A DNA stretch of 64,000 nucleotides, taken from IMG/VR virus record IMGVR_UViG_3300035698_004821, positions 1-64,000 of that record; one strand, given 5' to 3'. Below the pieces are notes generated by a model. It was not told the DNA's origin. It saw only the letters and a list, made by a program, of their open reading frames with translations, and ran no database searches. Positions 23,290 through 52,845 of the stretch are shown one piece after another. Each line of letters begins with the position of its first letter. Positions within the stretch are counted from its first letter, which is position 1. The translations under genes and the position numbers were made by a program. This DNA comes from a virus.

Positions 23290-23906
23290 TGGACATAAAC
23301 CAGATACTAGATCCCCAGAAAGTGGATAAGCTGTTCCGTGCCAAAGCAGAGTATGGGCAGCTTTTTTCGTTTAACTCAAAAGAGTTCGTGTCTGTCTTCA
23401 GACCACTAACCGTGGAAGAGACAGAGACACTAGCTTTGTTAGGTGAAAGGCTAAATCAATGCGCCGTAGAGGACTGGATATTTAGCACCTGCTTTGTGGC
23501 TGGGAACAAGGACGTACCCTACTTCTTAGAAGAGGGCCCGTTCCTTTACGTTAGCAACATAGCTTCTCAGATACCTGTCATGTCTAGTGCACAGGATAAA
23601 AAGACGTACAACAAAGCTGTACTGCAATCCCGAGAAGAACTTAACACCCTACAAAACGTTGTAGAGGTTATAATCACTAAGGGATACATGGGCTTAAAGG
23701 ACGTTAAGAAGTATAGCCAAAGAAAGCAGTTTGACTTACTAGCTAGAGCAGAGAGCATTTCTGGAGAGATGTTAGACCTAGGTGAAAAGGGCAAGAACAA
23801 AAGGGCCCTTAGAAAGTTCACAGAAGGCGCCACAGTTATAGGTGGCACCGAGAATATAACGAGCCCCACCGTAGCCGATAAGCCTGACTTTAACGAAGAG
23901 TTCTAA
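23289..23906 (+). CDS. Tail assembly chaperone 2 (paralogue-like)
   Basis: VFRPLTVEE parallels IYRSINRKE of the previous gene; TAGTG-coupled. Confidence 0.55.
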   Translation: MDINQILDPQKVDKLFRAKAEYGQLFSFNSKEFVSVFRPLTVEETETLALLGERLNQCAVEDWIFSTCFVAGNKDVPYFLEEGPFLYVSNIASQIPVMSSAQDKKTYNKAVLQSREELNTLQNVVEVIITKGYMGLKDVKKYSQRKQFDLLARAESISGEMLDLGEKGKNKRALRKFTEGATVIGGTENITSPTVADKPDFNEEF

Positions 23907-26900
23907 TGACCAGCGACTACATCAACAGACAAGCAGATCAGGAGAGACAACGATCTGTAGACGCAGACCAAAGTAAATGGGTAGCTCCATTCGCTGCTGG
24001 CCTAGGTGTCATTGGTCTTGGTTCCTATCTGTTGAAGACGAGGCTAACGCATGGTGGAGAGTTCGTTAGCAACATGTTCAATTTCTTGGGTGTGCCTAGA
24101 GGCATATCCTTGTCATCAGATGCAGCTGCTAACGTTGGTAAGTCACAAGCTAGAGCAGGCAACTCAGGTCTAAGAAGTCTACTTAATTCCACCTACGATA
24201 TAAATAGAAACAGGCTTAACATAGGCCCTATAGATTTAATAGATGATCTTAGAAACTCTATACAGCTCATCGGCAACACCGATGTCTCCATAGGAAGGCA
24301 CATCTTAGAGAGAACTACTGAGTACGTAAACCGTGAGATGGTAGCCAATGGACCCAACACTGGGTTCTTTACTAGGGACTTGGACCGTGTCACCTTTGGC
24401 CAAGTACTAAAAGACCAAAAAGCTTGGTCCAAAGTTCTAGGTGATGAGCAGCTTTCCGTAATAGCCCGAGCCAAAGAACTAAAGGTAATAGGGGACGACA
24501 CTCTACTCGATAAGAGGATCTTCTACAACAAAGGTACCAATGAGATCCTAGACCTTAGACTTAGAAACTTAACATCCAAGGTTGTCGAAAGGAAGACCGG
24601 AGCAGGCTCCGTCTTTGAAAGAACAGGTAAGTTTGATATGTTTGGGCAAGCGAATGTGCTCTCATCTATCTTTGGTGTTAAGGGTAGAGGTATTGCCCTT
24701 CTAGGTCCAGGAGATGGACACGCAGGTTCTAGGGTATTCATTGGTGGCAACACATATCGCTATCAGCTGAATCTAGCTACTAAGTCCTATGATGAAGTTC
24801 ACATAGGTGCGAACAGGACTCTAAGAAAGTCAGGCTCCCCACTAGAAGTGATCTCAGCATCTAGGGATGGAAGGATAGAGCTAAAGACTGCCCCCAAGAA
24901 AGGGCTGGTCGGATGGATGGAAAGGAACCTAGGTATAGGTACCTCCTTTAGTAGTAGGCCCACCCGAATCGAAACGGTGATTATAAACCCGTACAAGAGG
25001 TTTAGAGCTCTCCAAAAGGGAGAAGCTATAATCTTTAGCCACCCGTATAAGCGCCACGGTAAGTCATCCAATATGATGGATGCAGTCTTAGGTGGAGAGG
25101 CTCCTGAAATATCTACTTTAGGTTCAGGCCATGTAAGGGCAGGCACGGGCACCAGTGTCAAGATGTCTGACATAAGCGGTAGGACTTGGGGATTCATACC
25201 TAATAGGGTGGCCGTTATATTTGGTCTACTTGACGACTACTCTGTTATTGCAAAGAAAAACTATAAGAAGTATCTGTCGGGTGCACAGGACTCTATCTCC
25301 TCTTCAGACTTTGTTGTCCCTCTCAAAACAGGTGGGTATAAGATAACAGGCAGAACTATACCAGAGAGATCTGCTGCCAATAACCTAACCGATGTTGTCT
25401 CAGATGACCTGAGCGCAGGAGGGGTACCTTCTAAAACTAATCGCTATGGCTACTATGACACAAAGAAAGTAGCTGGCTCTAGCACTCTGTCTGGTCTTAG
25501 AGACGCAGCATCTTACATGCTGTACAGGGTAAATAGTCTCGCCTCTGAGACTGGCCTAGGTATTAGCTTCGCTCCCAGTCATAAGATATCGACTAACTTG
25601 GCTAGACTAGGTGGTGTCGCCTTTGCTTACGAGGGTCTACGGCAGGCTGGTCTCTACGCAGACTACGCGGTAGAGAAGGTAACAGGCTTCTCACCCATCA
25701 AAGCAGTAGCATCAGCGTATGCCGGAACTCGCATAGCACAACAAAAGGCCAGAGAAGTAACAGGCATCCAGCAGGGTGCTGAGTTCCTGGACAAGTACTT
25801 CCCAGGTAGTGTCAACTCAGAAGGCTCAACACTAATAAGAAGTATCCTGGCTCCCATGTTTGTCGCCAGTCGCTTCCTAAAAAAGGCTAACTACTTAGGG
25901 GCTGCACTAGGGGCAGGTGTAACCTATGCTGCTATAGGTGGTTCAGAGCCAGGGCAAGAAACTTCAGAGCTGATAAGAGAGTACTCAGGTGACAAGAAGG
26001 TTGCCGTGCGTAAGGGTGCCTTCTGGGGTATGGGTTATACCCCCTTCTTCGGTGGTGAAGTAGACAGGTATCAGGCTGGCTGGTATGCTAAGCTCCAATC
26101 TGACTATAGAAACAAATCCATTTACGGCTCTAATGATGAGTACTGGAAATACCACGCCAACGTGTTCGGTGTTCCATTGCCTACCCCATCCAACATGTTC
26201 GGTCTCAGCAACATCCTGAACCCTTACAGGATGGAGGACATTAATAGAGAGAACAGACCGTACATACAGTCGTCGCACCCTATAAGTAATTTCCCAATCA
26301 TTGGTCCGATACTGGGAGCTACTCTGGGAGAGCTGATGAAGCCCACGGTATTCCGTACTCCAGATCAGCTACCCCTGCTAAAGGCAGGTCTAGCACCCGC
26401 AGGCCTTACTCCGTCCACAGCTAGAATGATGGGTCTGTCATCCATGGAGGCTACTAGCCCTGAAGCAGAGAGCCCTAACACTATATCTAACCTTATAGCT
26501 AAGCAAGCCAACATTGCTACGGAACCTCTGGGTGTCTATAAGTTTGCTATGGAGTTCTTTGGCATAAGTACTAAGCCTGAGATGGGTAGAGAGTATGCCA
26601 CTAGTGCCACCATAGGTGATCCAGGTAGACAGCTCTATGACTCATCACTAGCTGGTGCTTTCGGACAAACAGAATTCATACGTCGTTTCATGCTCGGTGA
26701 CTACAGCGCCCAGTACAGAAGAGCGGCGGCCATCAACCCTATAAAGAACTCCATGCCCGACTGGTTGCCTGGTGCGTTCTCCTCTACAGATGCCGATAAG
26801 GCTTACTTCAGAGACTTCACCATGGGTGACCCTTACTCTAAGATTAAAGATGGAGAGGCCAGGCTACCTGGCAAGGGCTATGAAGCTCTGAATGAGCTTC

Positions 26901-28246
26901 ACTCAGGGACACCGGGTAAGTATAGTGATGTAGACAAATTCTTGATCCTATCTGATGTGGCACCATACTCCTCAGCGTACACCCAGTATGAGCAGAAGGT
27001 CAGAGACCTGAAGCTGGAAGGACGTTGGGGTAAGAAGGTAGAAGAAGCTATAGAGCACAGGCGACAATCTATAGGTGTAGACGACAGGTACAAGAGGTAT
27101 GAGGAAGAGATTATAGATCTAAACCTTAATATCTTGGCCGGTGCTGTGTACGAGCCTTTAAGGAAAGGCTATGATTTCTTAACCCATGATGTGCTTGCTG
27201 AGATACCGTACATAGGTTCTAAGCTATTCCCCTTCCGTAACCCTCACGAACAGTACCGTAAGACGCATGTCGAAGGGTCCGAGTACGCCTCCTGGGATAA
27301 ACCTTATGAAGGCATCATACGCCCTATGATATATGACACTGCATTGGAAGACCCTATCACAGCAGCCGGTAAAGGCGCTGTGCTGGGACTTCTAATATCA
27401 GGCCCCATGAAGTGGTTCTCCCCCTTAAAGTCCATCGTGAGCAACCCTGGGCACTCCTTCAACATGACTACCATGGCAGCGGGAGCAATAGGTGGTGCTG
27501 GACTAAGTACAGTGCGGATAGCTTCTGGCAATGACCAGAACATGTTGCCTAGCCACATTGAGGATGAGAGCGCAGCCATTGGCTACATGGACAAGATTGC
27601 TTACATCAAAGGGAGGGTGGAAGAGCAGGGAGGAGGCAGTAGTCTCCAGGCCAATAAGACTATGGTTGGAGCTAAGACAGTCATCAACTATAGGTCTGCT
27701 TTACCCAGGTCATCAGACAGAAGGTATTTTGACTACTTTGTTGGGCAAGAAAACGAAGATGTTAGATCGCAAATAATGGGAGGTCTCCCAAATTACATGC
27801 GGGAAGGCCTTAGTAAGACTTGGAATCAAGATTTTAATACGAGGCAGGAGTCTGATCAACAGATATTAGACTTCGTTAACACTAATGAGATTCCTGATCT
27901 TGGGTGGCAAGGATGGAGGCCTGAAGTCTCTGCTGCGGCCACTAAACTTAAGTTTGTACAGCATGGCATTAATGGTATATCTAATGATATACACAGATTC
28001 GGTTTCTTTGAGTCACACGAGATAGATATGAAGACAAGACTTAAAGAGTTCTCTAGTCAGAATATTAACTTCGTGCAGTCACCGATGCACTCAAGCTTTG
28101 ATTCCTTCCTCATGGGGCAGTCAAAGAGTATAGGAAAGTCTTCTTTCCGAATAGACTCCTTCTCCACACCTCAAGGTAGTCGCCGTGATATGACGGTGTA
28201 CGCTGATAAGGACAAAGAGCTTCTAGACCAAGTCAGGCGTAGATAA
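23906..28246 (+). CDS. Tape-measure-locus protein A (1446 aa; tape measure / DNA ejection protein)
   Basis: Directly follows the chaperones. Several Gly/Ala hydrophobic segments (FAAGLGVIGLGSYLL, LGAALGAGVTYAAIGG, AAGKGAVLGLLISG, AAGAIGGAGL). Confidence 0.6.
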   Translation: MTSDYINRQADQERQRSVDADQSKWVAPFAAGLGVIGLGSYLLKTRLTHGGEFVSNMFNFLGVPRGISLSSDAAANVGKSQARAGNSGLRSLLNSTYDINRNRLNIGPIDLIDDLRNSIQLIGNTDVSIGRHILERTTEYVNREMVANGPNTGFFTRDLDRVTFGQVLKDQKAWSKVLGDEQLSVIARAKELKVIGDDTLLDKRIFYNKGTNEILDLRLRNLTSKVVERKTGAGSVFERTGKFDMFGQANVLSSIFGVKGRGIALLGPGDGHAGSRVFIGGNTYRYQLNLATKSYDEVHIGANRTLRKSGSPLEVISASRDGRIELKTAPKKGLVGWMERNLGIGTSFSSRPTRIETVIINPYKRFRALQKGEAIIFSHPYKRHGKSSNMMDAVLGGEAPEISTLGSGHVRAGTGTSVKMSDISGRTWGFIPNRVAVIFGLLDDYSVIAKKNYKKYLSGAQDSISSSDFVVPLKTGGYKITGRTIPERSAANNLTDVVSDDLSAGGVPSKTNRYGYYDTKKVAGSSTLSGLRDAASYMLYRVNSLASETGLGISFAPSHKISTNLARLGGVAFAYEGLRQAGLYADYAVEKVTGFSPIKAVASAYAGTRIAQQKAREVTGIQQGAEFLDKYFPGSVNSEGSTLIRSILAPMFVASRFLKKANYLGAALGAGVTYAAIGGSEPGQETSELIREYSGDKKVAVRKGAFWGMGYTPFFGGEVDRYQAGWYAKLQSDYRNKSIYGSNDEYWKYHANVFGVPLPTPSNMFGLSNILNPYRMEDINRENRPYIQSSHPISNFPIIGPILGATLGELMKPTVFRTPDQLPLLKAGLAPAGLTPSTARMMGLSSMEATSPEAESPNTISNLIAKQANIATEPLGVYKFAMEFFGISTKPEMGREYATSATIGDPGRQLYDSSLAGAFGQTEFIRRFMLGDYSAQYRRAAAINPIKNSMPDWLPGAFSSTDADKAYFRDFTMGDPYSKIKDGEARLPGKGYEALNELHSGTPGKYSDVDKFLILSDVAPYSSAYTQYEQKVRDLKLEGRWGKKVEEAIEHRRQSIGVDDRYKRYEEEIIDLNLNILAGAVYEPLRKGYDFLTHDVLAEIPYIGSKLFPFRNPHEQYRKTHVEGSEYASWDKPYEGIIRPMIYDTALEDPITAAGKGAVLGLLISGPMKWFSPLKSIVSNPGHSFNMTTMAAGAIGGAGLSTVRIASGNDQNMLPSHIEDESAAIGYMDKIAYIKGRVEEQGGGSSLQANKTMVGAKTVINYRSALPRSSDRRYFDYFVGQENEDVRSQIMGGLPNYMREGLSKTWNQDFNTRQESDQQILDFVNTNEIPDLGWQGWRPEVSAAATKLKFVQHGINGISNDIHRFGFFESHEIDMKTRLKEFSSQNINFVQSPMHSSFDSFLMGQSKSIGKSSFRIDSFSTPQGSRRDMTVYADKDKELLDQVRRR

Positions 28247-31200
28247 TGAATAGTGATAACCCAGTTAATCGGCTGATTAATGAGACCTTAGGTTTAGGGT
28301 CTGCGCCTAAGTCTTTCTCTGATAAGATGGATGGGCTTCGCCGTGAGTTGAACCTGCCTGATGCTGAGTACATAGACTTGTTTAGAAAAGATCCTGGGCT
28401 CGAACAGCTTAGATCCTATTCTAGTAGTAGGCCGACCTATAGAGCCTCCGACCCTGACAACCTGCGCGCTATGTACAAAGGGCTGAGTGGTAGGGGTCTT
28501 ATCCCAAAAAGTGCCGAAGCAATCTTTAAGAAGGCCGGCTTAGCCGCCGGCGATAGCATCTACTACAACGGTGAGAATGCTTCTCTATTCTACAGATCAG
28601 GTAACGTAGTCACACCTCTTCCTGTAAGATCAGGTATGGGCGGAGTGCGATTTGGCAACGCCACTAGAAAAGCTAACTCACTAATGACAGGTGATGTAGT
28701 CACACCTTACATAGATGAATACTACAAAGGCATAGCAAGTTCTTCTAAACACTCCGTAGCGGAGGCAGTTAAGGAGTTCACTAGCTCAAGCAAGAATGTA
28801 CTTCTAACTCAAGGTGAGATCCCTCGGGCAGACCTATCCAATATCCTACTTGACGGTACGAGTGTTAAGGGTATCAATACACCTGAAGAAGCTTTTTGGA
28901 CTTCAAGACGATCTATCTTAGACATGCCATCTAACAAGGCTTTCCAAAAAAGCTTTAACCAGTTCCAACTATACTCAAGCTCTTTCTCTATGCTTGCTAA
29001 AACAGCTGGTCGAGTTATTAACCCCCAACTACAAGCCATAACCGGAAAGATAGATCACAGAGAAGCATTTAAAGTCTTGGAAGGGTATAAAAAGAACTAC
29101 ATCAGTTCACTGAGCGCTATGTTATTAGCCAGTGATGCGCCCTCTTCTTTTGTGTTCACTAAGCCTGGATTTTTAGGGCACGAAGAAGGGAAGTTTCTAA
29201 TAAGTTCTCCGCAGCTAACTAAGATGTTCGGCGGTGACTTAGAGAAACACACCTTAGACAAGGGTCTTTTTCAACTAGCTAAGCTTAAGCACACAGACAG
29301 TGGTCTAGCGCGAAGCCTTATAGAGGAGGGCATAGACCCAACTGCGCCGTATGTGATAGCGGGTGAAAGTCGTGGGCAAACGTTAGCTAGACTAAAGCTG
29401 AAAGTAGGTATTGTTGATACAGCTAATGATGCTGTATCTCGTTTACTATTCCAAGAAGGCGGAGCTATACTTGGTAAGCCGGGCATAGCTATGTTTGCAC
29501 AGAATGCACCTATGGGTGATCTGTCCTTCTCTTCACCTTCTGAGAAACTCATAACCTCAGTAGAAGATGTCTTTGGTATTAACCTGGGAGCAGGCAATGT
29601 ACAGACCTTCGACTGGAGCCCAACTACCCAATTAGGCAAAGCAAAAACTGAAGACTTAAAGAGAATACTTAAAGCTAGTGGAAATCAGAGAGGCTTGGCT
29701 AGGCTACTGGCTGTGACAGACAACAGGCTAGCCAAAGTAGAGCTAACTGACTCAACCCTTAAGCTGAGCTTCGTCACCCCTAATAGGGTGACTCCTGCCA
29801 CCTCTGAAATTAACATAGCGGCCCGTAGATTCGCCGCCACTAAGCTCAATGACTTTAACAAACTAGCTAACTCTGGCATCCCCGAAGACCTATTAGAGAG
29901 TGTTCATGTTTGGCATGGTGCCGATGAGTATCTTAAGAACCATGGTCCTGATGTCTTTATCACCAACTTCATAGAAAAGGTAAAAGGCAGAGACGACGCC
30001 GAAGTAATATTCCGTAAAGCTTTTGGACACGCAGCTAACATATCTATAAATGGTAAAACCAGAATGGTTGTGCCCGAGATTACCAGTGTAGATCACGCTT
30101 ACCGTAACTCTAAGTTACTCGTCCTACGGATGCTCAGAGGAGGCACAGATGAAGAGAAGACGCTAGCCGCAACGATACTAAAGGGAAACAAGGTAGTTAC
30201 AGATAAGATGCTCAAGTCTGGCATCACGGGTGTCACTGTAATTGGTATGGGTGGCGCGTCTAGAACTGACTTCATGGGTGATATCAATATGATGAACCCT
30301 GTGACTATCTCTCCAACTAAGATGACCCACATAGCTGCTGGTGCAAGGCAGCTAGGCTATGACCATCTGTACCAAGACCCAATGTACAGTCTCTTGGCTG
30401 GATCTAATAAATCATGGAATAGTGGGGATATACGTGTACTAGCCGGATCAGGTCAGCTCCATATTAGTGACAAGCATATAATGTCCAGGTACGCTAAAGC
30501 TTTATATGCTAAACCAGGACACATAGATCCGTCGGCTATAGTTACGCTTAACAAGGGCGGAGGCTTTTCAATAGGGGGTAAACCACTTAGAGCACTACCT
30601 ACTGACTTTAACGATTTTTCACATGCTAAAGGTGTTGATTTTAGCCGATTAGAAGGTACCATTTTAGGCCAAAAGCAGGACATGTTGTATCTTGACCTAG
30701 GCAAAGAAAGGCAACTAGATCTTTTGGGCTCAGGTAAAAAAAGTTACAGATACTTGCCTATACCTTTAGACTACCTAAGAGTTAAAGAAGGGTTACATAA
30801 CAGACTAATAATTGGCAAAAAGAACCCAACACGAGGTATTGTCCAGTCACTAGTAGACATAGACTCTAATAGAGACTTTTATAAGGATGTTTTAGCTGAG
30901 CTAGAAAATACAGAGTCAAAATTAGGCCGTCAAATGAGCCAAGGCTTCTTTAGCCTTAACAAATCTATAGCGGGTAAAGAAGGTATTTTCCAAAAAAGCA
31001 ACACTATCCTTATGCCATTAGGCGCAAGAACTAGATTGACCCCACAATCGGGTAGTTTCTTTGACATGGCATCTTTAGATGATGCCAGTAAACTATACAC
31101 CAGTGTTATGTCTTCTTCAGATTTTGAAGACTACTTAGCTAGAAAGAGCGGAACAGGGAAAGGAGTCCAAAAGCAGATAAGCAAGATCAAAGAGCTGGTT

Positions 31201-32766
31201 AAGAAGCAGGGTCACTTCTACGCCATGGTATCTGTAGACCCCATGCAGAGAGCAGAGCACGCTAACCTGATGCGAATTCGAGTGGATCCTACTATACCTG
31301 GCTCTGCAAAGATAGGTCAGCTTAACATGGCCCAGCACCCGTTCTGGTATTTATTGTCGGAAAGAGACACAGACAGAGATGCTGCGTCTATAGTCCCTCT
31401 ATCTGGTATGAGTAATACAGGGCTAACAGACGAACAAATAAACTCTCTGCTAGAAGATAGATGGTTGAGACAGCAAAAGCTATCTAAGCACTTTATGTGG
31501 TTTTACAAGCACCAGCTACTGACGGGTAGCGTGGCGTCTGCTGAAGATAGATTCTCTCTTTTAAAGAAAGGTCTAGTTAAGGCTAAGAACGCTATTAACC
31601 ACATACCTACATACTTAGGTATTTCTGAGTCACTTGGTTACTCTACAGTGCGTGCCTCAGAAGACATAATGAGTAACCTCATAGCCTATGATGTGCGTGG
31701 CGCAAGACTAGCTGGCGTCAAACACTCAACAGCGTCAGATGAAATGCTGAAACTTATACGCGCTCCCTACGCTAATGACAAGGTAAGAGCTGAAATAGCT
31801 AGAAAAGCATACCAAAACATATACCAGTCACCTGTTGTTAAAGCTGGAAAAGACCTTCTAGGTGCGTTTGACGCGGCGCTCATAGACATTGGACACAAGT
31901 ACAAGGGTACTGCCTTCGACTATGACAAAGTAGTAAGTGAAACTGCAGACGCTTTCTACGATCTTTTAGCCGGATCAGGTAAGGTTAGATCATTCACAGA
32001 AACGGAATACCTATACAACAACTTCCCAAAGGTAAAGTCCTCTATGGACCTCATGAAGGCAGACCTAGAGAGAGGTGCTGAGTACGCTAAAGAGAGTGGT
32101 AAAAAAGCCAAAGAACAAATCTTCAGAGCAACCTCTCAGCTGATGGGAGAAATGCTAGGTGGAGGCCAAGTTCTCGCTGCATCACAAAGCATGCCTAAAG
32201 GTGTCAACAGTATTATACAGTCAATAATGAGACCTGAAACAACTCAAGCAGTTGTTGAGTCTAATGTTTTGAGACCAGCTCTTGGTCTTGAAGAGAAAAA
32301 CAAAAATAGCCAAAAAGTGGTAGGTGCGCTTCAAGACACGGGTGGAAGAATGCCGATAACCGATGGCGATGCTAGTGAGTCAATGATGTCTAAGGCGACT
32401 AAGTACTTCAACTCATCTAAGGGTAGAACTTTTGGTGCAGGTATTGGCATCGGCGCCTTGGTAGGCGCTGGTATAGTATCTAGCATGTCTGGCCCTGAAG
32501 CACCAATGCCAAGAGACGTCGATGGACGTCAACCTACAGACCGTGCACCCGACGTGTACAGCACGCCACCAAGAATATATGGTAACCACCAGAGTTTCTC
32601 CGCTTCAAAGCAGGGATCTCCAACGGCAATACCTAACATAGGGGCTTATCAGTTCCCGAGTTTTGGTAATTCATCAATAACTATAAGGGACAGATCAAGT
32701 TCCAGCAACCCCCGTATGATCGAGAGACATATGAGAGATATATCTAACAGCGATTACACATACTAA
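28246..32766 (+). CDS. Tape-measure-locus protein B (1506 aa): single-chain two-barrel (DPBB) RNA-polymerase-like protein
   Basis: Beta'-like motifs in order: IAGKEGIF (908-915), GARTRLTP (926-933), MVSVDP, HPFWYLLSERDTDRDAASIVPL (1031-1052). Weaker beta-like motifs upstream: KVGIV..FQEGGAIL, KLSFVTPNRVTPATSEINIAARR, VHVWHGADEYLK. C-terminal Gly-rich hydrophobic helix. Confidence 0.7.
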   Translation: MNSDNPVNRLINETLGLGSAPKSFSDKMDGLRRELNLPDAEYIDLFRKDPGLEQLRSYSSSRPTYRASDPDNLRAMYKGLSGRGLIPKSAEAIFKKAGLAAGDSIYYNGENASLFYRSGNVVTPLPVRSGMGGVRFGNATRKANSLMTGDVVTPYIDEYYKGIASSSKHSVAEAVKEFTSSSKNVLLTQGEIPRADLSNILLDGTSVKGINTPEEAFWTSRRSILDMPSNKAFQKSFNQFQLYSSSFSMLAKTAGRVINPQLQAITGKIDHREAFKVLEGYKKNYISSLSAMLLASDAPSSFVFTKPGFLGHEEGKFLISSPQLTKMFGGDLEKHTLDKGLFQLAKLKHTDSGLARSLIEEGIDPTAPYVIAGESRGQTLARLKLKVGIVDTANDAVSRLLFQEGGAILGKPGIAMFAQNAPMGDLSFSSPSEKLITSVEDVFGINLGAGNVQTFDWSPTTQLGKAKTEDLKRILKASGNQRGLARLLAVTDNRLAKVELTDSTLKLSFVTPNRVTPATSEINIAARRFAATKLNDFNKLANSGIPEDLLESVHVWHGADEYLKNHGPDVFITNFIEKVKGRDDAEVIFRKAFGHAANISINGKTRMVVPEITSVDHAYRNSKLLVLRMLRGGTDEEKTLAATILKGNKVVTDKMLKSGITGVTVIGMGGASRTDFMGDINMMNPVTISPTKMTHIAAGARQLGYDHLYQDPMYSLLAGSNKSWNSGDIRVLAGSGQLHISDKHIMSRYAKALYAKPGHIDPSAIVTLNKGGGFSIGGKPLRALPTDFNDFSHAKGVDFSRLEGTILGQKQDMLYLDLGKERQLDLLGSGKKSYRYLPIPLDYLRVKEGLHNRLIIGKKNPTRGIVQSLVDIDSNRDFYKDVLAELENTESKLGRQMSQGFFSLNKSIAGKEGIFQKSNTILMPLGARTRLTPQSGSFFDMASLDDASKLYTSVMSSSDFEDYLARKSGTGKGVQKQISKIKELVKKQGHFYAMVSVDPMQRAEHANLMRIRVDPTIPGSAKIGQLNMAQHPFWYLLSERDTDRDAASIVPLSGMSNTGLTDEQINSLLEDRWLRQQKLSKHFMWFYKHQLLTGSVASAEDRFSLLKKGLVKAKNAINHIPTYLGISESLGYSTVRASEDIMSNLIAYDVRGARLAGVKHSTASDEMLKLIRAPYANDKVRAEIARKAYQNIYQSPVVKAGKDLLGAFDAALIDIGHKYKGTAFDYDKVVSETADAFYDLLAGSGKVRSFTETEYLYNNFPKVKSSMDLMKADLERGAEYAKESGKKAKEQIFRATSQLMGEMLGGGQVLAASQSMPKGVNSIIQSIMRPETTQAVVESNVLRPALGLEEKNKNSQKVVGALQDTGGRMPITDGDASESMMSKATKYFNSSKGRTFGAGIGIGALVGAGIVSSMSGPEAPMPRDVDGRQPTDRAPDVYSTPPRIYGNHQSFSASKQGSPTAIPNIGAYQFPSFGNSSITIRDRSSSSNPRMIERHMRDISNSDYTY

Positions 32767-32767
32767 C

Positions 32768-35700
32768 ATGACAACCACAACATTAACTAACTATGCAAGC
32801 GCATATGCAGTAGGCCGCCAGCATGTTCACTTTGACTGCAGGGCGAGCACACCAACTACTGGTTTAATGAGTGATCGAGATGCCCAAGGATATTGGAGGG
32901 TTATTCGCGCAGGATCAATTATTAAACGTGAAAATGGTATATTAGACTTTGCTTGGCTTGGTCTAGACGGAGACATCGTACAATGCATGGCTGTCGATAG
33001 TGCTGGCAACAAAGGGGAGTTTGTATCTTACACTTATAGTGTTGCTGCGAACACTGCCGCTGATGTTGTTTACTACGTCAACTCAGCAACGGGTAATGAC
33101 TCTACTGGTGATGGCTCAAGTGGCCTACCTTGGGCTACTCCAGGTAAAGCTGCTACTGAGATGGCCTCGGCCTTAGGTGGCACTGAATCAGGTGTTATCT
33201 TTATCTCAGGCAGTAACACATACGTGATTACTGGATCCTTATGGGGTGGTGGTGATGCACTAACCCGTCAGGTTAGGTTTATATGGGATGGGACTGGTAC
33301 GAAGCCGACTCTTAGCTTCTCGAATAATGCTACAGGATTTATCACTGGTAAGCGTGAGTCGCCACATATTGAAGGCTTTATATTAGATGGTGACGCGGTA
33401 GACGGAACTGCTAATAGTTACTGCGTTACCTTTAACCGTGATGGCGGAGTCGCAGCTGATCGATCGGCCTACAACATCATGTTGGTCAATTGTGACCTGC
33501 GGAACTTTTCAAACCATATTGAAGGTAATGAGGTAACCGTAGGGTCATCGGACCGATCATCTGGCTGTTTTGACTTTGTCGCTCTTGAAAACTGCACACT
33601 AGCGGGTATTCACGGAGCATCTCCAGGTGCCCAGTACTACCTTTACTCTTGGAAGTACGTAGAGAAGTGGTTACTTAACAACGTCTCATTCGGTGCTGCG
33701 GTTAGTTTCAACTCAGGTATAAGACTACTACAGACAGGTAGAGGTTATACCTCTGATGTTGTAGAAGACTACGGAATCAAAAGAACCCGATTCACTATCG
33801 CTCCAGGAGTAGGTAACGAGACTAAACTTCAGTCTCACGTTCGATGGACTAAGTATGCTGGAGATGGAGATGATGTCATAGGTTACGAGACTGATGCGTC
33901 TAACGTTGGCATTAGTTACGTTGAAGATATTCGATACTACGACTGTAGGCTACTGGATTCAAGAATATCTTTTAGAGCTAATGAAGGAGCAGTTCTAAAT
34001 GGTGTTAATGTCACTAGGTTTGACATTATCAATACAGTATCTAAAGGCTACCATATTGGTAGGACTGCTGCTGTAGGTCACTCCATTAGCTCCATCAGGT
34101 GGAGGGATTGTGCAGTAATCAGAGACTACCAAAATGGCGCATTCATCACTATAGATGGTGTAGCCGATGGTCTAGAGACTGACTCCTTACTGTTCAACGG
34201 CTGCTACGTTTATTGGCGGATGACTAATGGCTTTGAAGGTGGTGGTGTATTCTACTCTGCGTTCAATGCACTAAGAGCCACGATCGCTGCGGCAGTTCAC
34301 GGTGACTCTGATAATAACCATACTGCTAAAGTAAACTCTACTTTCCTGCGGTGGGCTTCTCACTCAGATGATTCTGGGGAATCTGACTTAACTCAATGGC
34401 AAGCTGTATCTGACGCTGACGACTCTTCAGATACACATAATAGTACTACACTATTCTTAACTAATAATGGTGCATCTGACTTTAGAGATACTGATGTCAC
34501 ACTAACTAGTGGAGCAGGACCATTAAATAATGTTGGATCTCCCTTAGCTCTTGGCGTTGCTATTGACTCAGCAGGTAAGTTAAGAAGTGCCTCTACCCCT
34601 GATGCAGGACCCTATGAGTTTGGAGCTACGGATCTACCCGACGACCCACTACCCGACGACCCACTATCCCCTCTATTAACTACGAGTTCCATGCCTGTTG
34701 TTACAGTCGAGGTACAGTCCCCACCGGTGACGCCTTTGCCCCTAGTATCAGCAGGCTCTATACCTGCTGTAACAGCGAACATCGCTACATCTACAGAAGT
34801 AGTGGTTGGTTCTCCTCTTATATCCACAGTTAGCCTACCAGTAGTGGTTGGTTCTCCGCTTATACCCACGGCTATCCCACCCCTTTCTAGTGTAAGTAGC
34901 CTACCAACTGTAAGTGTTGCTTCCGTTGATCACTTTCAAATTGACACAGCTGGACCAGGAATGGAAAGCTGGAGATCTACAAAATTCTCGGCTACAGTTA
35001 ATGGTGATACAGCCTACGTCTATGCACATACTAGAGAGACACAGTTTTCGTGTTCAGTTTGGGACGCAGGGGTTGATGTTGAGCAGTCCGTGCTTAGGTA
35101 TGGCGCTAGTGAAGCAACGACAGTAACCATTAGTCTTGCGGATGCCACTGCAATTACGTCTGCTATAGTCTACCCAAAAAACTTAGGTGTTACCCAGGTA
35201 ATTTCAATGGGAGTCTTGACATTGACCGTGCCTGCGAATGTCAGACTACGGGTTGAGGTTAATGGGGACCGTGCCGAAGTACTGTCTTTACTCGCCAACC
35301 CGCTTACTTCTACTCCTACCTCAGTAGTTGACTACACAACTCTAGCAAAAGCTATTGACTCTGTGAGTACTACTGCAGACGGGTATATAACTATTACGGC
35401 GCATGGTTGGACTGGGTTTTTACGCGGTCTTATGACTACGCCAGATGAGTTACCAACACCTACCGAAGGTACAATAGGGGCTTATGAAGCAGTTCTTCTT
35501 TTGGTCATTGATGAAAATACTGTTGTAATTTTAGACGATAATTACGTCCCAAGGACATTTAGCGCATCAGGTAGTGATGTGTTTATGTCTCCAGCCCAAT
35601 GGACTGATACGGTTAACACACTGTTAATACCCGCCGGTCAGCATAACATAGGTGCTCAGTTTACCCTGGGTGATAACGTAAGCGTCTACCTTGAAAAAGG

Positions 35701-37159
35701 GGCTGTAGCCCTAGGGTCATTTCAAATGAACTGCACTAATGCAAGGGTACATGGTCCTGGCGTTTTAGCAGGAACTCACGTTGATTCTCTGGTTGGCTGG
35801 AACTCGGGGGACTTTAATGTAAAAGTAGTTACATCTATGTTTTACAGGGCCCCCACTAGTTCTGATGATCACTCTAATACTATTGAAGATATCACAGTGT
35901 TGGGTAGCCCTTTCTTTTTAAACTTTTTAGGTGTAAAGAAGTTTAAAAATGTGGCACATATATCTCCCTGGAATTACTCAACAGATGGTTTTGCTCCTCA
36001 GACTATAACAAGTAACGAAAGTGATATAAGTGAGATCATAGATTGTTACGCTCTTTGTGGCGATGACGCGTTACGAATAAGTATAAGAGAACGTAGCTGT
36101 GAAACTTCAGGCACCTTTGTTACCACTACAAACAATTCATGCATTAGCAGTGACACTAGGGTGCATTTTATTAATGAAAATAGGTATAGCAAGACTACAG
36201 ACACGCACTTAATGCATTTAGGAAAAGCGGATAGTGTCGGGGGTAATATAGCCTCTAAAACAATAATTAAGTTATTGACCGACGGTCGCGATAACACACC
36301 ACCCTTTGGTCACTTCAACTACACTTTTGAACGGATCAATGTATGGGGACCAATAGAGTCTAGGCTTTTTTGGTTGGGTAGTTTAGCTAACCCGTTTCAG
36401 GTTAGTAGAGGTTTGCATGGTGTGGTGCAAAACGTACTCTTTAAAGACTTTACTGTAGAAGCAGTCCCTGGTCAAATCTCATCTATCACATCTAAGGATG
36501 CCACTAACACACCCTCTAATATTACTTTTGAAGAACTATCTATAGGCGGCCAAAAAATATTTAGTGATAACCGGCATTCTTATGTGTCCGTGTCGGGTCT
36601 TGCATATGATATAGTCTGGGACATTCGGCCTGGCACAATACTTCTTGATCCTTCTGAGGTGCACAGCATCTCGTCTATTAATCTTCTTTATGCTGGTGAT
36701 GTACCGGCCATACTTGTAAGTAATAGTGAATCAGTAGCGACTACATCAGCTGGGCAAGGAGGCTTAACAGAGGTTATAGCTTTTGATCTACACCTAAAGG
36801 TAGGTCAAGCAACAGCCTCTGGAACTAATGAGCCCATTGATCCACCAAGAGATCCACCGACCGAGCTACCCGTATTTAGCATATCCGTTCCCTCCTCTAC
36901 TCCCAGCTTAGAGCAGGCTGTGGCTATACGGGATGAAGTGGTGCTGCCTATACTGCTAGAGCTTGATAAAATTGATAACAATATTGCTAAAGCATCCACT
37001 AATAGCAAGGTGGTGTGGTCGCAAAGTGTATTAGATCGTATAGAGGTTCCTGCTGTGTCACGGACCATAATTAAAATTAAAGCTGCCAACTACAGTAAGT
37101 TCACCCGAAGGGTGGACAGTCCTGTCGTAAGAGCGTCCACACCTAGACGAAGATTCTAA
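32768..37159 (+). CDS. 1463-aa tailspike/depolymerase with two beta-helix-type domains
   Basis: Domain 1 runs from YYVNSATGNDSTGDGSSGLPWAT to PDAGPYE (pectate-lyase-fold signature). After a linker, domain 2 has VYLEKGAV, GPGVLAG, WNYSTDG and GDDALRI (GH28/GH49-like). Confidence 0.7.
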   Translation: MTTTTLTNYASAYAVGRQHVHFDCRASTPTTGLMSDRDAQGYWRVIRAGSIIKRENGILDFAWLGLDGDIVQCMAVDSAGNKGEFVSYTYSVAANTAADVVYYVNSATGNDSTGDGSSGLPWATPGKAATEMASALGGTESGVIFISGSNTYVITGSLWGGGDALTRQVRFIWDGTGTKPTLSFSNNATGFITGKRESPHIEGFILDGDAVDGTANSYCVTFNRDGGVAADRSAYNIMLVNCDLRNFSNHIEGNEVTVGSSDRSSGCFDFVALENCTLAGIHGASPGAQYYLYSWKYVEKWLLNNVSFGAAVSFNSGIRLLQTGRGYTSDVVEDYGIKRTRFTIAPGVGNETKLQSHVRWTKYAGDGDDVIGYETDASNVGISYVEDIRYYDCRLLDSRISFRANEGAVLNGVNVTRFDIINTVSKGYHIGRTAAVGHSISSIRWRDCAVIRDYQNGAFITIDGVADGLETDSLLFNGCYVYWRMTNGFEGGGVFYSAFNALRATIAAAVHGDSDNNHTAKVNSTFLRWASHSDDSGESDLTQWQAVSDADDSSDTHNSTTLFLTNNGASDFRDTDVTLTSGAGPLNNVGSPLALGVAIDSAGKLRSASTPDAGPYEFGATDLPDDPLPDDPLSPLLTTSSMPVVTVEVQSPPVTPLPLVSAGSIPAVTANIATSTEVVVGSPLISTVSLPVVVGSPLIPTAIPPLSSVSSLPTVSVASVDHFQIDTAGPGMESWRSTKFSATVNGDTAYVYAHTRETQFSCSVWDAGVDVEQSVLRYGASEATTVTISLADATAITSAIVYPKNLGVTQVISMGVLTLTVPANVRLRVEVNGDRAEVLSLLANPLTSTPTSVVDYTTLAKAIDSVSTTADGYITITAHGWTGFLRGLMTTPDELPTPTEGTIGAYEAVLLLVIDENTVVILDDNYVPRTFSASGSDVFMSPAQWTDTVNTLLIPAGQHNIGAQFTLGDNVSVYLEKGAVALGSFQMNCTNARVHGPGVLAGTHVDSLVGWNSGDFNVKVVTSMFYRAPTSSDDHSNTIEDITVLGSPFFLNFLGVKKFKNVAHISPWNYSTDGFAPQTITSNESDISEIIDCYALCGDDALRISIRERSCETSGTFVTTTNNSCISSDTRVHFINENRYSKTTDTHLMHLGKADSVGGNIASKTIIKLLTDGRDNTPPFGHFNYTFERINVWGPIESRLFWLGSLANPFQVSRGLHGVVQNVLFKDFTVEAVPGQISSITSKDATNTPSNITFEELSIGGQKIFSDNRHSYVSVSGLAYDIVWDIRPGTILLDPSEVHSISSINLLYAGDVPAILVSNSESVATTSAGQGGLTEVIAFDLHLKVGQATASGTNEPIDPPRDPPTELPVFSISVPSSTPSLEQAVAIRDEVVLPILLELDKIDNNIAKASTNSKVVWSQSVLDRIEVPAVSRTIIKIKAANYSKFTRRVDSPVVRASTPRRRF
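34634..34666 (+). repeat. 15-bp tandem duplication (LPDDP x2)
   Basis: CTACCCGACGACCCA repeated exactly at 34634 and 34649. Confidence 0.9.
34798..34870 (+). repeat. 42-bp-period direct repeat (VVVGSPLI x2)
   Basis: AGTAGTGGTTGGTTCTCC at 34798 and 34840, with near-identical continuation. Confidence 0.85.
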
Positions 37160-40100
37160 TGCTAGAAAATAACACAAACCTACAGATAGGACCCCTAAAG
37201 TATAGCCACGTTGTTCAGAAAATTGCTATACAGGAGAGAAAGTCTGTGGACGTCCTAGAGACTACAAGGTCGAATAGAAACTTTGTAGTAGACTCTGGCG
37301 AAGCAATGCACAAGGCGCAGATAAGACTATTGTTTACTGGGCTAGATGAGATCAATAGAGGTGCAGGAGCCGAAGGCGAAGAGAGTGGCCTAAGAGGACT
37401 GATAGCTCTATTCCGTACTGCCCCCATTATCTCCATACTAAACAAGTACCTGAATACATCATGGAAGAAGCAGGACGAACTGCTTAGAGAGGATGATGGC
37501 TCCCTCTCTGAGGGTAGTGTCTATTTCTCAGAGATAGTTCCTGTGGCCTTAGATGGTATAGAGCTAGAGAATGTCCCTGACATTCCCTTTAGTATCCAGG
37601 TCACGCTGTCGGTATCTAGGGTTGAGATTGGCCCTGTGTCTAACTCCGAAGTTCTGTATTACCTAGGTGAGAATAGCAAGGAGGATAGGAAGGAGAGACC
37701 TCAAGATGCCTTCTGGTTAAGGAAGTGGATAGAGCAGATATTAAGTTCTGATGAAATACCAGAGCTAAAGCCTACCGACTTTGATAAAGCTAACTTTAAC
37801 TGGTACGGTAAGACAGCAGTTGGCACAAGCATAGAGACTAATAGAGAGAACTTTCACTTACACCTTACTACATCAGATACAACGACAGGCGGTGTACTCA
37901 TATCTGAGAACTGCTCCATGCGCCATAGGTTTGCCTACAACAAGCTACTGGGTAACATCTTCTCCTTTCCAACGCACATGGGATCCACAGCCCGATCTAT
38001 GTCTCTGGACATTGTCTTCAACAACCAGGAGTCGGATGAAACGTACGCCCAGTTCTGCAGGTTCAAGGAGACAGCGGATGAGATAGCTAAGAGCAAGAAT
38101 AGGTTTGATAGAGTCACAGGGTGGCACATTCAGACCCCTATATCTAAGTTGCTTGGCCTTAAGAAGACGACACTAGCCGAAGGAGTCCCAGGTCAAAAAC
38201 CATACGAAGGGGTGTACGTGCCTGTTAATATTACCTCTGAGAGTGGGGAGCAACCTAATATGGTCAACTGTAGAATAGACCTACTAGAGAGTAATGTAGA
38301 CTTCTACAGGGATAATGAGATCAACCTAATCAATGGAGGCACAGACTATGAGGACCTGTGGCAATACTTTGATAGTATTATGGATCAGGAGTTCGCCTTT
38401 CGGAAGAAACTAAGGGATGATAAGGATGCGGCCATACGAGAAATAGTAGGTAGAAGTAGTGAGGATAACTACAAAGGGTACCAGCTGTTCTGGCCTATAA
38501 CCCAGGGGGTTACAAAGATCAAGACAGCTTCTCCCTTTGCTATACTAAATGTAGATACACTACGTGCCGTCTTCCTGGACCCTGACTTTGATGTAGGTGG
38601 AAGGATACGTGACGCACTGTTGAACCACTCTCTAACATACGGGGAGGTGGTAGCCAACCGTCGAGTAATTATATCTGATAAAGTTGTACAGAATGGTAGC
38701 CTAATTTGGAGAACTTTTGCTGGACTAGACAACAATGATCTAGAGACAGGAAAACTAATAGAGGCAATTCGTAATGTAGTTGCTACTCAATTCATGACTT
38801 GGTCTGACTTAGAGGAGCCAAGTGTGCAGGACATAGTTCGACATTTAGCTAATCCGGCTACCTTAGGTGATCAACCCCCAGAGATTCTAGGTGGGCTTGG
38901 AGCCGTAGATATTCTATCTACTGCCATAGCTATAGACCTAACCCGAGGGTTCTTAGGTGATGCTAAAAGCTTTTTTACTACAGAATCATCAACAGGAAAA
39001 GTACTTTCTAGGCTATTCTCAAGTAAGTATGAGTTCCTTCCAGCCTTCAAGGAGGCTTTGTTTAAGGTAATAACAGAGCGAAAGGGTAAGCCTAAACTCC
39101 TACCTCATGTATATTCTACAGATGGTGTCTACTCTGCCTTCTACAAACTCATAACATCCTACACCCTAGAGAAGGACGCCACCATAGGCATACAAGAGGC
39201 AAGAGATAACTATGTACAGGACAATAGGAACCTACAGGGCTCCAGTCTATACCCTGACCTTTTACTGCCTACGTATGTTGACCTCTATGGGAAAGATAGA
39301 TGGAGTGAGTTCGCGCCGACTATAGAAGACTTAGGTCTAGACACTTACTACGAGGGGGCACTTACTTCAGAAGACCTTAAGGCTGTTCAAGGTAATGACA
39401 TCGTGTCACCTGCTGCATGGTTCTATATAAAGCGAGTTAAGAATGGGGAGACAGGCTTGAAAAGCCTAGCCAGAACTACGGCTGACGTCATAGACAAGAC
39501 TAGTCCCAACCTCCATATCTCCATGCCCTTCAATACTAATGAGATAGCAGACATCAAACAGCTGATCCAAAAGGATGGGAAAGAGACAGGCATGAAGGGT
39601 ATGAAGACTAACCGTACCCTCTCTGAAATCATTGAGGATTCCTTATACTCCTACAAGGAGTCTGACCCCTCTGGGTACAGACAAGACCTAACCACCCTAC
39701 TAACTAACGCTGATAAGTTTGAAGAGGGGTATCTAAAGGATAACGGATCTCTTAAGGTCTACATACACCACAATAATAACTACTCGATACCTAGGGAGAT
39801 TAATGTTCCAGGACTAGGTGCTCAAGTATACAAGATAGCGAGCAAGAAGAGAGAGCTCAATACTGATAAGCTACGCAGACTAGACGCAGATGCGGCGTAC
39901 ACGACTCCTCTTGAGGAGGATGTCAAGTTCAACAGACACCTAGATGGCAACACTAGAAAACTTATGGACTCTTCTCTTAGCCAAATACCAGATGACCAGT
40001 ACAGCCCGGAAAGGTTGTTCCCATCTATAAAGGTATTCCTGATAGACAGAAGAGGCAATGACATAATAGCAGACGATGGTCTGTTCTCTGTCAACGCCAT

Positions 40101-44464: not shown

Positions 44465-44907
44465 TGGCTATATATACCCAACAAGATATTGAATCAACAC
44501 TAGATGGTGATATACAGCTATCCCCTAGAGGGGATCTACAGTTAGCCAATCCACTTGACACGTTCAAGTCATTAGCTAACTTTTTATTAAGGACAGACTT
44601 CGGAGATTATAGCCCGGATACATCGGTAGGCTGCAATCTAGGTTCCTTCGTAGGTGAGCTAAACACTACGGATAACAGGCAGTTTATGGAGTATAATATA
44701 ACTAGTGTCCTGCGAGAGAGATTATTCACCGTAGCAGATGTTGAAGCTACGGTTGTTCCATTCGATCTAAACGAAGTTCTTTGTGTTGTCAATATAGGTG
44801 GTTCCTACTTACTAGATGGAACCATACAGACTATTAAAGGCGAAACACTAACGTACACATTCCCATATATAGATGGGACCCACATCACGCCAATCACTAC
44901 AGACTAA
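44464..44907 (+). CDS. gp25/W-like baseplate wedge (sheath initiator)
   Basis: DGDIQLSPRGDL...LRTDFGDY....GCNLGSFVGE; directly upstream of the J-like gene. Confidence 0.8.
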   Translation: MAIYTQQDIESTLDGDIQLSPRGDLQLANPLDTFKSLANFLLRTDFGDYSPDTSVGCNLGSFVGELNTTDNRQFMEYNITSVLRERLFTVADVEATVVPFDLNEVLCVVNIGGSYLLDGTIQTIKGETLTYTFPYIDGTHITPITTD

Positions 44908-52844: not shown

Positions 52845-52845
52845 C

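Follow-up and report, generated by a model that had tools for sequence, protein, structure and literature searches.

Results

The locus

In this study, we analyzed a 64,000-nucleotide stretch of viral DNA (positions 1 to 64,000 of the IMG/VR record IMGVR_UViG_3300035698_004821, hereafter the window) and the protein P0001, of 1506 amino acids (aa), whose gene spans 28246..32766 on the + strand. The window is part of a 93-kb virus record, estimated to be 48% complete, from an uncultured marine phage with a contractile tail. [quoted passage not shown] A preliminary description of the gene, made from the sequence by eye, had proposed that its active site lacks the residues with which RNA polymerases (RNAPs) sense ribose and has features of the archaeal DNA polymerase PolD.

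The large ORFs of the window are all on the + strand and constitute a myovirus structural module. Genes for the terminase (66-2087), portal (3999-6143) and major capsid protein (8600-9961) are followed by that for the sheath (18954-20627) and two tube-like genes, 3' of which are four giant genes encoding proteins of 1446, 1506, 1463 and 2042 aa, as well as a Baseplate_J gene (44907-46052). The P0001 gene, the second of the giant genes, is thus 3' of the sheath and tube genes, in a single string of overlapping genes that all run in one direction. The stop of the 1446-aa gene (23906..28246, +) overlaps the start codon of the P0001 gene, and the downstream gene begins 2 nt past the stop of the latter. 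P0001 and its two giant neighbors are not paralogs.

The tail module is of the type found in Bacillus phage 0305phi8-36. A 228-aa protein of the window matches the 0305phi8-36 tube protein gp140 (E 6e-34), and the 1446-aa protein matches both ME3_35 of Acinetobacter phage vB_AbaM_ME3 (ME3; BLASTP, E 8.5e-30) and gp145 of 0305phi8-36 (E 3.6e-21), the latter having been identified in virions by mass spectrometry according to its GenBank note. Synteny is conserved in two related contigs (L002 and L003), where the homolog of the 1446-aa gene in each case immediately precedes the polymerase gene. A simple scan for a hydrophobic helix in the 1446-aa protein found none. The 2042-aa protein has a weak match to the hub protein ME3_37, so that the P0001 gene is flanked by genes for a gp145-like virion protein and a hub. 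In 0305phi8-36 this slot belongs to gp146 (2537 aa), whose annotation reads 'hypothetical tape measure protein' and records it as a virion protein by mass spectrometry; in ME3 the slot is that of ME3_36. A search for a DxDxD motif in gp145 and gp146 found none; therefore, 0305phi8-36 offers no proteomic proof of a polymerase in this slot.

Two further features of the neighboring genes were observed. An additional 1463-aa gene (32768-37159, +), with no ME3 counterpart, separates the polymerase from the hub-like gene. Within the hub-like 2042-aa protein (37159-43287, +), residues 1655-1838 are a lysozyme-type segment, and residues 576-594 and 1862-1885 are hydrophobic helices.

Fold and family of P0001

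No family in Pfam, PHROGs or NCBIfam was matched by P0001, including any RNAP domain of Pfam, and neither phmmer nor a family-profile hmmsearch over all PDB sequences returned anything significant. ESM Atlas look-ups were uninformative. Homologs to P0001 numbered 13, at 33-75% identity; an IMG/VR scan found only two relatives, tblastn of P0001, P0056 and P0063 against 50,697 phage records gave no match, and a profile search of 1.84 billion proteins yielded 58 family representatives.

In the AF2 model of residues 301-1300 (predicted local distance difference test score, pLDDT, 79.7; predicted template modeling score, pTM, 0.78), DPBB-B is followed by DPBB-A and the two domains form one core, the arrangement by which the two-barrel superfamily is recognized. 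When this core model was compared with the PDB by Foldseek, RNAP beta' chains were listed first. VIA-align, a search independent of Foldseek that covered 48,161 representative PDB chains, returned two-barrel RNAPs as all of its top 18 matches. The best solved match was QDE-1 (7y7p_A), with Z 11.2 and a root-mean-square deviation of 4.4 over 314 residues in both barrels, and other Z scores were 8.6 for P74-26 gp62, 6.2 for P23-45 gp96 and 5.7 for crAss gp66. Second-largest RNAP subunits (those of African swine fever virus and vaccinia, Pol IV, AR9 beta and Rpb2) cover residues 334-680 (Z 8.9-9.5), the largest subunits align to residues ~740-1300, and isolated DPBB domains (VAT-N, Cdc48-N and a designed DPBB) align to residues 921-1073.

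A separate model of the catalytic barrel, residues 891-1120, was of higher pLDDT (89.7) and had 383 Foldseek matches at E ≤ 1e-3, led by the beta' chains of AR9, plastids and E. coli (4e-7 to 2e-5). The top 12 matches of this model by VIA-align were all largest RNAP subunits (Z 7.7-9.9), and its scores against P23-45 gp96 and crAss gp66 were 6.5 and 4.9, respectively. Its predicted secondary structure is like that of beta', comprising a strand, the Pro loop, two strands, a helix, the acidic loop and a further strand. P0001 is a very diverged one-chain relative of cellular RNAP.

Conservation was counted in an alignment of 52 sequences in which identity falls to as low as 16%. Twelve columns are invariant (P6, R528, R673, D679, R930, P999, R1040, D1041, D1043, D1045, Q1194 and K1199), and all but the N-terminal P6 are inside the polymerase core. 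An N-terminal D-N-P-[IV] motif at residues 4-7 (28255-28266, +) is conserved across the family, although the alignment of the most distant members may be forced there and the invariance of P6 should be read accordingly.

The catalytic barrel

The family profile of the catalytic barrel aligned with residues 340-500 of E. coli beta' over 141 columns (hhalign, E 7.5e-4), a run with the whole core being weaker. This alignment bears out the by-eye reading in which beta' NADFDGD becomes ERDTDRD, and the translation places the residues named in that reading where they had been said to lie: S996-V997-D998-P999 at 31231-31242 and E1039-R-D-T-D-R-D1045 at 31360-31380, both on the + strand. D1041, D1043 and D1045 are paired with beta' D460, D462 and D464, R1044 with G463, R1040 with A459, E1039 with N458, H1031-P1032 with H450-P451, P999 with P427 and V997 with R425. 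Further upstream in the alignment, S-I-A-G-K-E-G...G-A-R928-T-R930-L (30964..31041, +) is the counterpart of beta' N-L-L-G-K-R-V-D-Y-S-G-R-S-V-I...Y-L-R-L, with S-I-A-G-K against N-L-L-G-K-R; R930 is present in all 52 sequences and G913 in at least 90%.

The helix and acidic catalytic loop together read H-P-F-W-Y-L-L-S-E-R-D-T-D-R-D (31336..31380, +), of which H-P-F-W-Y-L-L-S is paired with beta' H-P-L-V-C-A-A-Y. The DxDxD lies between the last two strands of DPBB-A, the location of the a-motif in two-barrel polymerases, and its three Asp residues are invariant. R1040, directly before them, is likewise present in 52/52, and position 1039, the equivalent of N458, is Glu in 44/52. At position 1044 we found Arg in 31, Lys in nine, Asn in four, Leu in three, Met and Ala in two each, Gln in one, and Gly in none, so that the survey of homologs recovered mostly DxDRD or DxDKD and no instance of DxDGD. 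The longer motif R-D-x-D-x-D is present in each of the 63 family members that cover the region. The preliminary description had noted that retention of all three Asp argues against simple decay and that random loss of the triad in homologs would speak against its reading; no such loss was seen, and invariance of the motif across 52 diverse relatives makes decay unlikely and places the site under purifying selection.

Upstream of the acidic loop is the Pro-gate loop S-V-D-P-M-Q-R-A-E-H (31231..31260, +), which retains its Pro but has no Arg at the position two residues before it. In E. coli RNAP (beta' R425) and in QDE-1 (R962), this Arg reads the 2'-OH of the nucleoside triphosphate (NTP). The earlier claim that beta' R425 is replaced by Val is upheld by the pairing of V997 with R425, and the position (Pro-2) is never basic among the 52 sequences, being Ala in 26, Val in 18, Pro in three, Ile in two, and otherwise Phe, Thr or Ser. 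The rest of the loop is well conserved (P999 52/52, H1005 50/52, Q1001 48/52, D998 47/52, R1002 43/52). Pro+1 (position 1000) is Met in 20, Thr in 18, Ala in nine, Val in two, with others but no His, and His occurs at Pro+2 in 4/52. The missing gate Arg is the one active-site feature of the family without precedent among RNAPs.

One explanation for this absence is that the ribose-sensing Arg has moved across the gate Pro to R1002 (Pro+3), leaving an ordinary, rNTP-specific and functionally canonical RNAP. Pro+3 is basic in 45/52 sequences, and two of the seven exceptions carry an Arg at Pro-3 (R-P-T-P), a weak hint that the Arg may have moved rather than vanished. However, five members lack a basic residue at both positions, covariation of the missing Arg with Pro+3 is only weak, and hhalign pairs Pro+3 with beta' H430, which is not known to us to contact the NTP. 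We regard this explanation as unlikely, and it is a sub-case of the reading favored below rather than a true rival to it.

Past the catalytic barrel, a helical region at residues ~1062-1300 (31429..32145, +) may hold the equivalents of the bridge helix and trigger loop. Q1076 is near-invariant there and Q1194 and K1199 are invariant, and the fold alignments to the largest RNAP subunits and to QDE-1 extend as far as model residue 939-1000.

The beta-like barrel

The beta-like half of the core, residues ~334-700 (29245..30345, +), was delimited from the fold alignments and comprises DPBB-B with a helical insertion of ~125 aa. The motif E404-G405-G406 (29455..29463, +) is, from its topology, a candidate equivalent both for the 'ED' motif of beta and for QDE-1 D709, the latter being a ligand of metal B (PMC9508822). 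Position 404 is Glu in 31 and Asp in 20 of the 52 sequences, position 405 is Ser, Gly or Ala, and G406 is present in 48/52. This pattern fits the single acidic residue of QDE-1, D709. The previously named residues E404-G405 (29455-29460) are where they had been said to lie, and their equivalence to ED is a candidate one drawn from domain order, predicted topology and conservation, hhalign giving no significant alignment there.

A beta-hairpin at residues 519-533 (29800..29844, +; strands 519-524 and 527-533 in the model) carries E521 (29806-29808, +) and R528-x-T530 (R528 at 29827-29829, +) and is a candidate for the basic b-motif on the basis of its conservation and model. In two-barrel polymerases the b-motif is an R-x3-K in DPBB-B whose Lys holds the 3' phosphate of the primer. 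R528 is invariant, T530 is present in 42/52 and E521 in 36/52, and the region has no conserved Lys. The residues that had been put forward as counterparts of the two beta lysines are thus indeed E521 and R528, but their equivalence to beta K1065 and K1073 is at candidate level, resting on topology and conservation with a non-significant profile alignment; R528 would represent a conservative change of Lys to Arg. According to PMC7708050, the basic motif has only a single universal Lys, the first Lys being confined to multisubunit RNAPs and PolD, so that a Glu at position 521 is not unusual for an enzyme of the QDE-1-like clade.

The second conserved block of this barrel is R673-T-D-F-M-G-D679-I-N...S-P-T-K692-M (30262..30324, +), with R673 and D679 in 52/52, N681 in 44/52 and K692 in 42/52; across the family it reads R673-x-D-F-M-x-D679-I-N...P-[ST]-K692-M. 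By eye it resembles beta D-I-V-L-N-P-L-G-V-P-S-R-M, but the pairing made by hhalign differs and is non-significant. No significant hhalign alignment was obtained between the family core and E. coli beta or P23-45 gp96, each used as a single sequence.

Comparison with two-barrel RNA polymerases

A parallel in gene context is offered by Thermus phage P23-45 gp96, a virion two-barrel RNAP fused to a tape measure (PDB 8H2M/8H2N; Chaban et al. 2024, PMC10770324), for which entry into the host by way of the tail, followed by the onset of transcription, has been proposed (PMC10770324). Like P0001, gp96 is a two-barrel polymerase of one chain whose coding sequence lies at the tape-measure locus of a tailed phage. 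They differ in that gp96 is the N-terminal 1200 residues of a 5002-aa siphovirus tape measure, and in that gp96 has a canonical R-N-P gate and DFDGD whereas P0001 is without the gate Arg; the two have no sequence similarity and only a modest structural match. The beta' N458 position is Gly in gp96 (T-G-V-D-F-D-G-D), so the Asn is absent there too. The loss of N458 and of the first beta Lys, which had been counted as non-canonical, therefore proved to be normal in proven single-chain RNAPs (gp96 Gly; PMC7708050).

A similar comparison holds for the fourth position of the acidic loop. The RNAP of crAss-like phage phi14:2, gp66 (PDB 6VR4), is a virion-packaged and ejected single-chain two-barrel enzyme whose acidic loop reads DFDID and which is active, with every Asp required. 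The lack of Gly at the fourth position in the P0001 family, which had been counted as non-canonical, thus has a precedent in an active RNAP, and this Gly is not strictly defining of RNAPs. The residue is Ile or Val in gp66 and mainly Arg or Lys in the P0001 family. In addition, gp66 keeps R-I-P, comes from a podovirus and is a weak structural match to P0001.

Among QDE-1 and the eukaryotic RDR-type single-chain two-barrel RNAPs (PDB 7Y7P, 2J7N and 7W82), QDE-1 shares with P0001 both barrels in the same order and, potentially, a single acidic residue from the first barrel (D709 in QDE-1, the candidate E404 here). It is a eukaryotic RNAi enzyme with DYDGD, at 8-9% sequence identity to P0001 in the aligned regions, and in its R-X-P 'Pro-gate' (R962-S-P964) R962 is hydrogen-bonded to the 2'-OH of the NTP. 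Compared with multisubunit RNAPs, the catalytic barrel of P0001 has in common with beta' the G-K...R block, the H-P helix and the spacing of the acidic loop; the multisubunit enzymes divide between two chains what P0001 holds in one, and R425, N458 and G463 are replaced in P0001. The filter by which Chaban et al. defined RNAPs is [RK]xP x{20,100} DxDxD (Supplementary Data 4, PMC10770324), and their table lists DSDFD, DTDFD, DNDGD and DHDGD variants (PMC10770324). The P0001 family does not have the [R/K]-x-P gate loop 20-100 residues before its DxDxD.

Proteins of ME3 and Microcystis phage MaMV-DC were among the best structural matches in BFVD (E 3e-6 and 3e-5). The family-profile search of the two genomes found nothing, with no detectable sequence similarity to P0001. 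Candidates for the matched proteins were picked as ORFs of at least 900 aa with a DxDxD preceded by R-x-P, and from their sequences they are probably ME3_36 and a 1697-aa MaMV-DC ORF. ME3_36 (L036:15173-19984) has R-E-P...DHDQD and lies in the tail slot between the gp145-like gene and the hub; the giant unannotated ORFs of MaMV-DC (KF356199) are at 49227-54317 (-) and 66655-77343 (-), and the signatures across both phages are REP...DHDQD, RTP...DADGD and RSP...DFDGD. Since ME3_36 and the MaMV-DC ORF keep R-x-P, the loss of the gate Arg is specific to the P0001 family.

Comparison with PolD

The motifs of PolD were taken from published papers. P. abyssi DP2 reads GLAPHTS ... HPYFHAAGRRNCDGDED, with the blocks G-L-A-P-H-T-S and H-P-Y-F-H-A-A-G-R-R-N-C-D-G-D-E-D, which agrees in substance with the motifs given in the preliminary description, including an Arg before the acidic motif. 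In Thermococcus 9N PolD the corresponding sequence is K959-R960-R961-N962-C-D-G-D, and R960 and R961 have been called PolD-specific (PMC7708050). PolD DP2 and P0001 share the two-barrel core, a gate loop without Arg (G-L-A-P-H-T in PolD), an Arg directly before the acidic motif (R-R-N-C-D-G-D in PolD, R1040 here) and an equal spacing from H-P to that motif. The likeness ends there. PolD has NxDGD, with two Asp and the Gly kept, whereas the P0001 family has E-R-D-x-D-[R/K]-D, with three Asp and the Gly lost; only the second of the two PolD Arg is common to the family; and the steric-gate His after the PolD gate Pro (P-H-T, H931) is Met, Thr or Ala. The Mre11-like DP1 proofreading partner and Zn modules of PolD were not seen in P0001. 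The parallels with PolD are thus real for the absent gate Arg and the preceding Arg, and do not extend to the steric-gate His or NxDGD. PolD DP2 was absent among the matches listed in the four fold searches, which were filled by RNAPs, QDE-1/RDR and isolated DPBB domains, although a family outside the matches listed is not thereby excluded.

These similarities raise the possibility of a changed sugar specificity, in which P0001 would be a phage-delivered enzyme making DNA, mixed or primer-like products and convergent on the solutions of PolD, and in relatives would act jointly with a fused DnaQ-type 3'-5' exonuclease. The gate Arg is absent from all 52 sequences, the equivalent of N458 is Glu, and the invariant R1040 is at the position of PolD R961. 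However, the family has no conserved bulky steric gate, it has kept three Asp and lost the Gly, unlike NxDGD, and every fold search was led by RNAPs and QDE-1. Moreover, PolD variants H931A/S/V incorporate rNTPs (PMC7708050), which argues against exclusion of rNTPs in the family by the mechanism of PolD. A further point against such a specificity is provided by the complete related genome described below, which already has a family A DNA polymerase. We know of no phage two-barrel DNA polymerase. On this evidence we consider a changed specificity of this kind unlikely. The altered sugar or template specificity suggested initially, with the gate Arg and the N458 equivalent absent family-wide, is a live hypothesis and not a conclusion.

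Exonuclease fusions and the C-terminal module

In approximately a quarter of the family, the polymerase is preceded in the same chain (residues 55-420) by a DEDDh 3'-5' exonuclease of the DnaQ type. All three motifs (ExoI D-x-E, ExoII N-x3-[FY]-D and ExoIII H-x4-D) are intact in at least 10 representatives (P0026-28, 35, 36, 39, 44, 53, 54 and 59), and a divergent version occurs in about five more distant members (P0056, P0058, P0062, P0066 and P0067). PF00929 was above cut-off in six tested proteins; the best NCBIfam matches were to DnaQ, PolC and epsilon, below their equivalog cut-offs. In P0001 itself no exonuclease domain was found with Pfam, NCBIfam or a check for the motifs. DnaQ-type exonucleases are the classical partners of DNA polymerases, and the fusions would suit a family that no longer senses the 2'-OH and that, on the incoming genome, makes DNA, hybrids of DNA and RNA, or primer-like products, many relatives bringing a proofreading exonuclease. 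This seems to us unlikely. P0001 is without the exonuclease, and the fusions elsewhere might just as well expose template by trimming DNA ends or have some other role after injection.

At the other end of the protein, a hydropathy scan identified a Gly-rich hydrophobic helix, F-G-A-G-I-G-I-G-A-L-V-G-A-G-I-V-S-S-M, at residues 1396-1414 (32431..32487, +), and a similar segment was seen in distant relatives. P0001 ends in a conserved tail, I-R-D...N-P...R-x-M...S-N-S-D-Y-x-Y (32677..32763, +), in which S1502 and D1503 are each present in at least 90%; the consensus end is SDFxY, and distant relatives finish likewise. We observed that the C-terminal module of the family (32431-32763) as a whole is composed of the Gly-rich helix, a Pro-rich stretch, A-P-x-P...Q-P-x-D-x-G-P, and an ...S-D-[FY]-x-[YR] end. 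The module fits a delivered tail-lumen or membrane-active protein and may be a signal for membrane insertion or tail docking.

These C-terminal features (helix, Pro-rich stretch and conserved tail), which resemble those of delivery proteins, would be compatible with an inactive structural or ejection protein, such as a tape measure or pore former, that has retained a polymerase fold. So would the replacement of several canonical active-site residues and the equivalence of the slot to that of the 0305phi8-36 tape measure candidate without DxDxD. Nevertheless, sequences with as little as 16% identity all retain the three Asp, the Arg beside them, the gate Pro and seven more residues of the core, whereas other parts of the protein drift, the pattern expected for catalysis and not for a scaffold. 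We judge an inactive protein to be very improbable, and the catalytically dead fold raised in the preliminary description is disfavored by the strict conservation of the metal site.

Discussion

Our analyses favor the interpretation that P0001 is an active, virion-delivered RNAP of an undescribed family, in which sugar selection has been relaxed or moved to another residue; we assign this a probability of roughly 60%. By analogy with P23-45 gp96, crAss gp66 and the N4 vRNAP, virion-delivered RNAPs of a class that also includes the phiKZ/AR9 vRNAP, P0001 would be a late product that travels in the particle and leaves it together with the DNA, after which it would act as a DNA-dependent RNAP for the first phage transcripts. 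Delivery is suggested by the position of the gene, flanked by those for a gp145-like virion protein and the hub, by the co-directional gene string and by the precedent of P23-45 gp96.

In the proposed active site, the catalytic Mg ions would be held by the three Asp of the R-D-x-D-[R/K]-D loop together with E404 of the other barrel, and R528, R673, R930, R1040, K1199 and, in most members, K692 probably replace the canonical Lys and Arg at the primer 3' end and NTP phosphates. With the gate Arg changed to Ala or Val, ribose recognition may be relaxed, rNTPs winning by their cellular excess, or may be supplied elsewhere, for which R1002 (Pro+3), Q1001, E1039 and R1040 are candidate replacement sensors.

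The preference for RNA over DNA as the product is based on the DFDID precedent of crAss gp66, the lack of the PolD His, the three Asp being kept, and the gene content of a complete relative. The latter is the related contig of L002 (G001; 189.7 kb, with terminal repeats and rated complete), which encodes a family A DNA polymerase (E 4e-118) at 140335-141480. No PolB, T7-type RNAP or Rpb1-type RNAP was recognized in it, and no second copy of the two-barrel polymerase gene was found in it or in the genomes G000 and G002. This relative has its own replicase but no other recognizable phage RNAP. A weak frame like sigma-70 region 2 was also observed in this contig at 155847-156044 (E 0.003, below cut-off). 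Synthesis of DNA or of mixed products by P0001 appears rather unlikely.

A number of observations weigh against the interpretation of P0001 as a virion-delivered RNAP. R-x-P is kept in all the validated two-barrel RNAPs that were checked (E. coli RAP, gp96 RNP, gp66 RIP and QDE-1), as well as in the structural relatives ME3_36 (REP) and the MaMV-DC ORF (RTP). The signature of Chaban et al. is failed by 58 of 65 family members, and the other seven pass it solely through a non-homologous KxP or RxP tripeptide off the aligned gate loop. The invariant R1040 is at the position of PolD R961, an Arg described as PolD-specific (PMC7708050). The fusion to an exonuclease in relatives keeps the reading as a DNA-synthesizing enzyme alive, and the beta-side residue equivalences are candidates drawn from domain order, predicted topology and conservation only. 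Finally, a folded core of 1000 residues is not obviously able to pass through a tail tube.

Two-barrel polymerases include the RNAPs of all cells and the archaeal replicase PolD. A switch between rNTPs and dNTPs within one catalytic core bears on how replication and transcription diverged, and the P0001 family represents a natural experiment in this respect, combining a conserved metal site with the absence of the 2'-OH-sensing Arg, an Arg that formerly marked only PolD, and a frequent exonuclease. Since its members fail the [RK]xP...DxDxD filter and the Pfam, PHROG and PDB sequence searches, the family would be missed by current surveys of phage RNAPs. What P0001 polymerizes is a testable question, and ME3 and MaMV-DC are possible tractable models for tail-slot polymerases. 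Should P0001 synthesize DNA, it would be the first PolD-like two-barrel DNA-making enzyme from outside Archaea, and its route into the cell would be through a tail. Should it be a virion RNAP, delivery of transcription enzymes from the tail slot would extend from one Thermus siphovirus to widespread large marine myoviruses.

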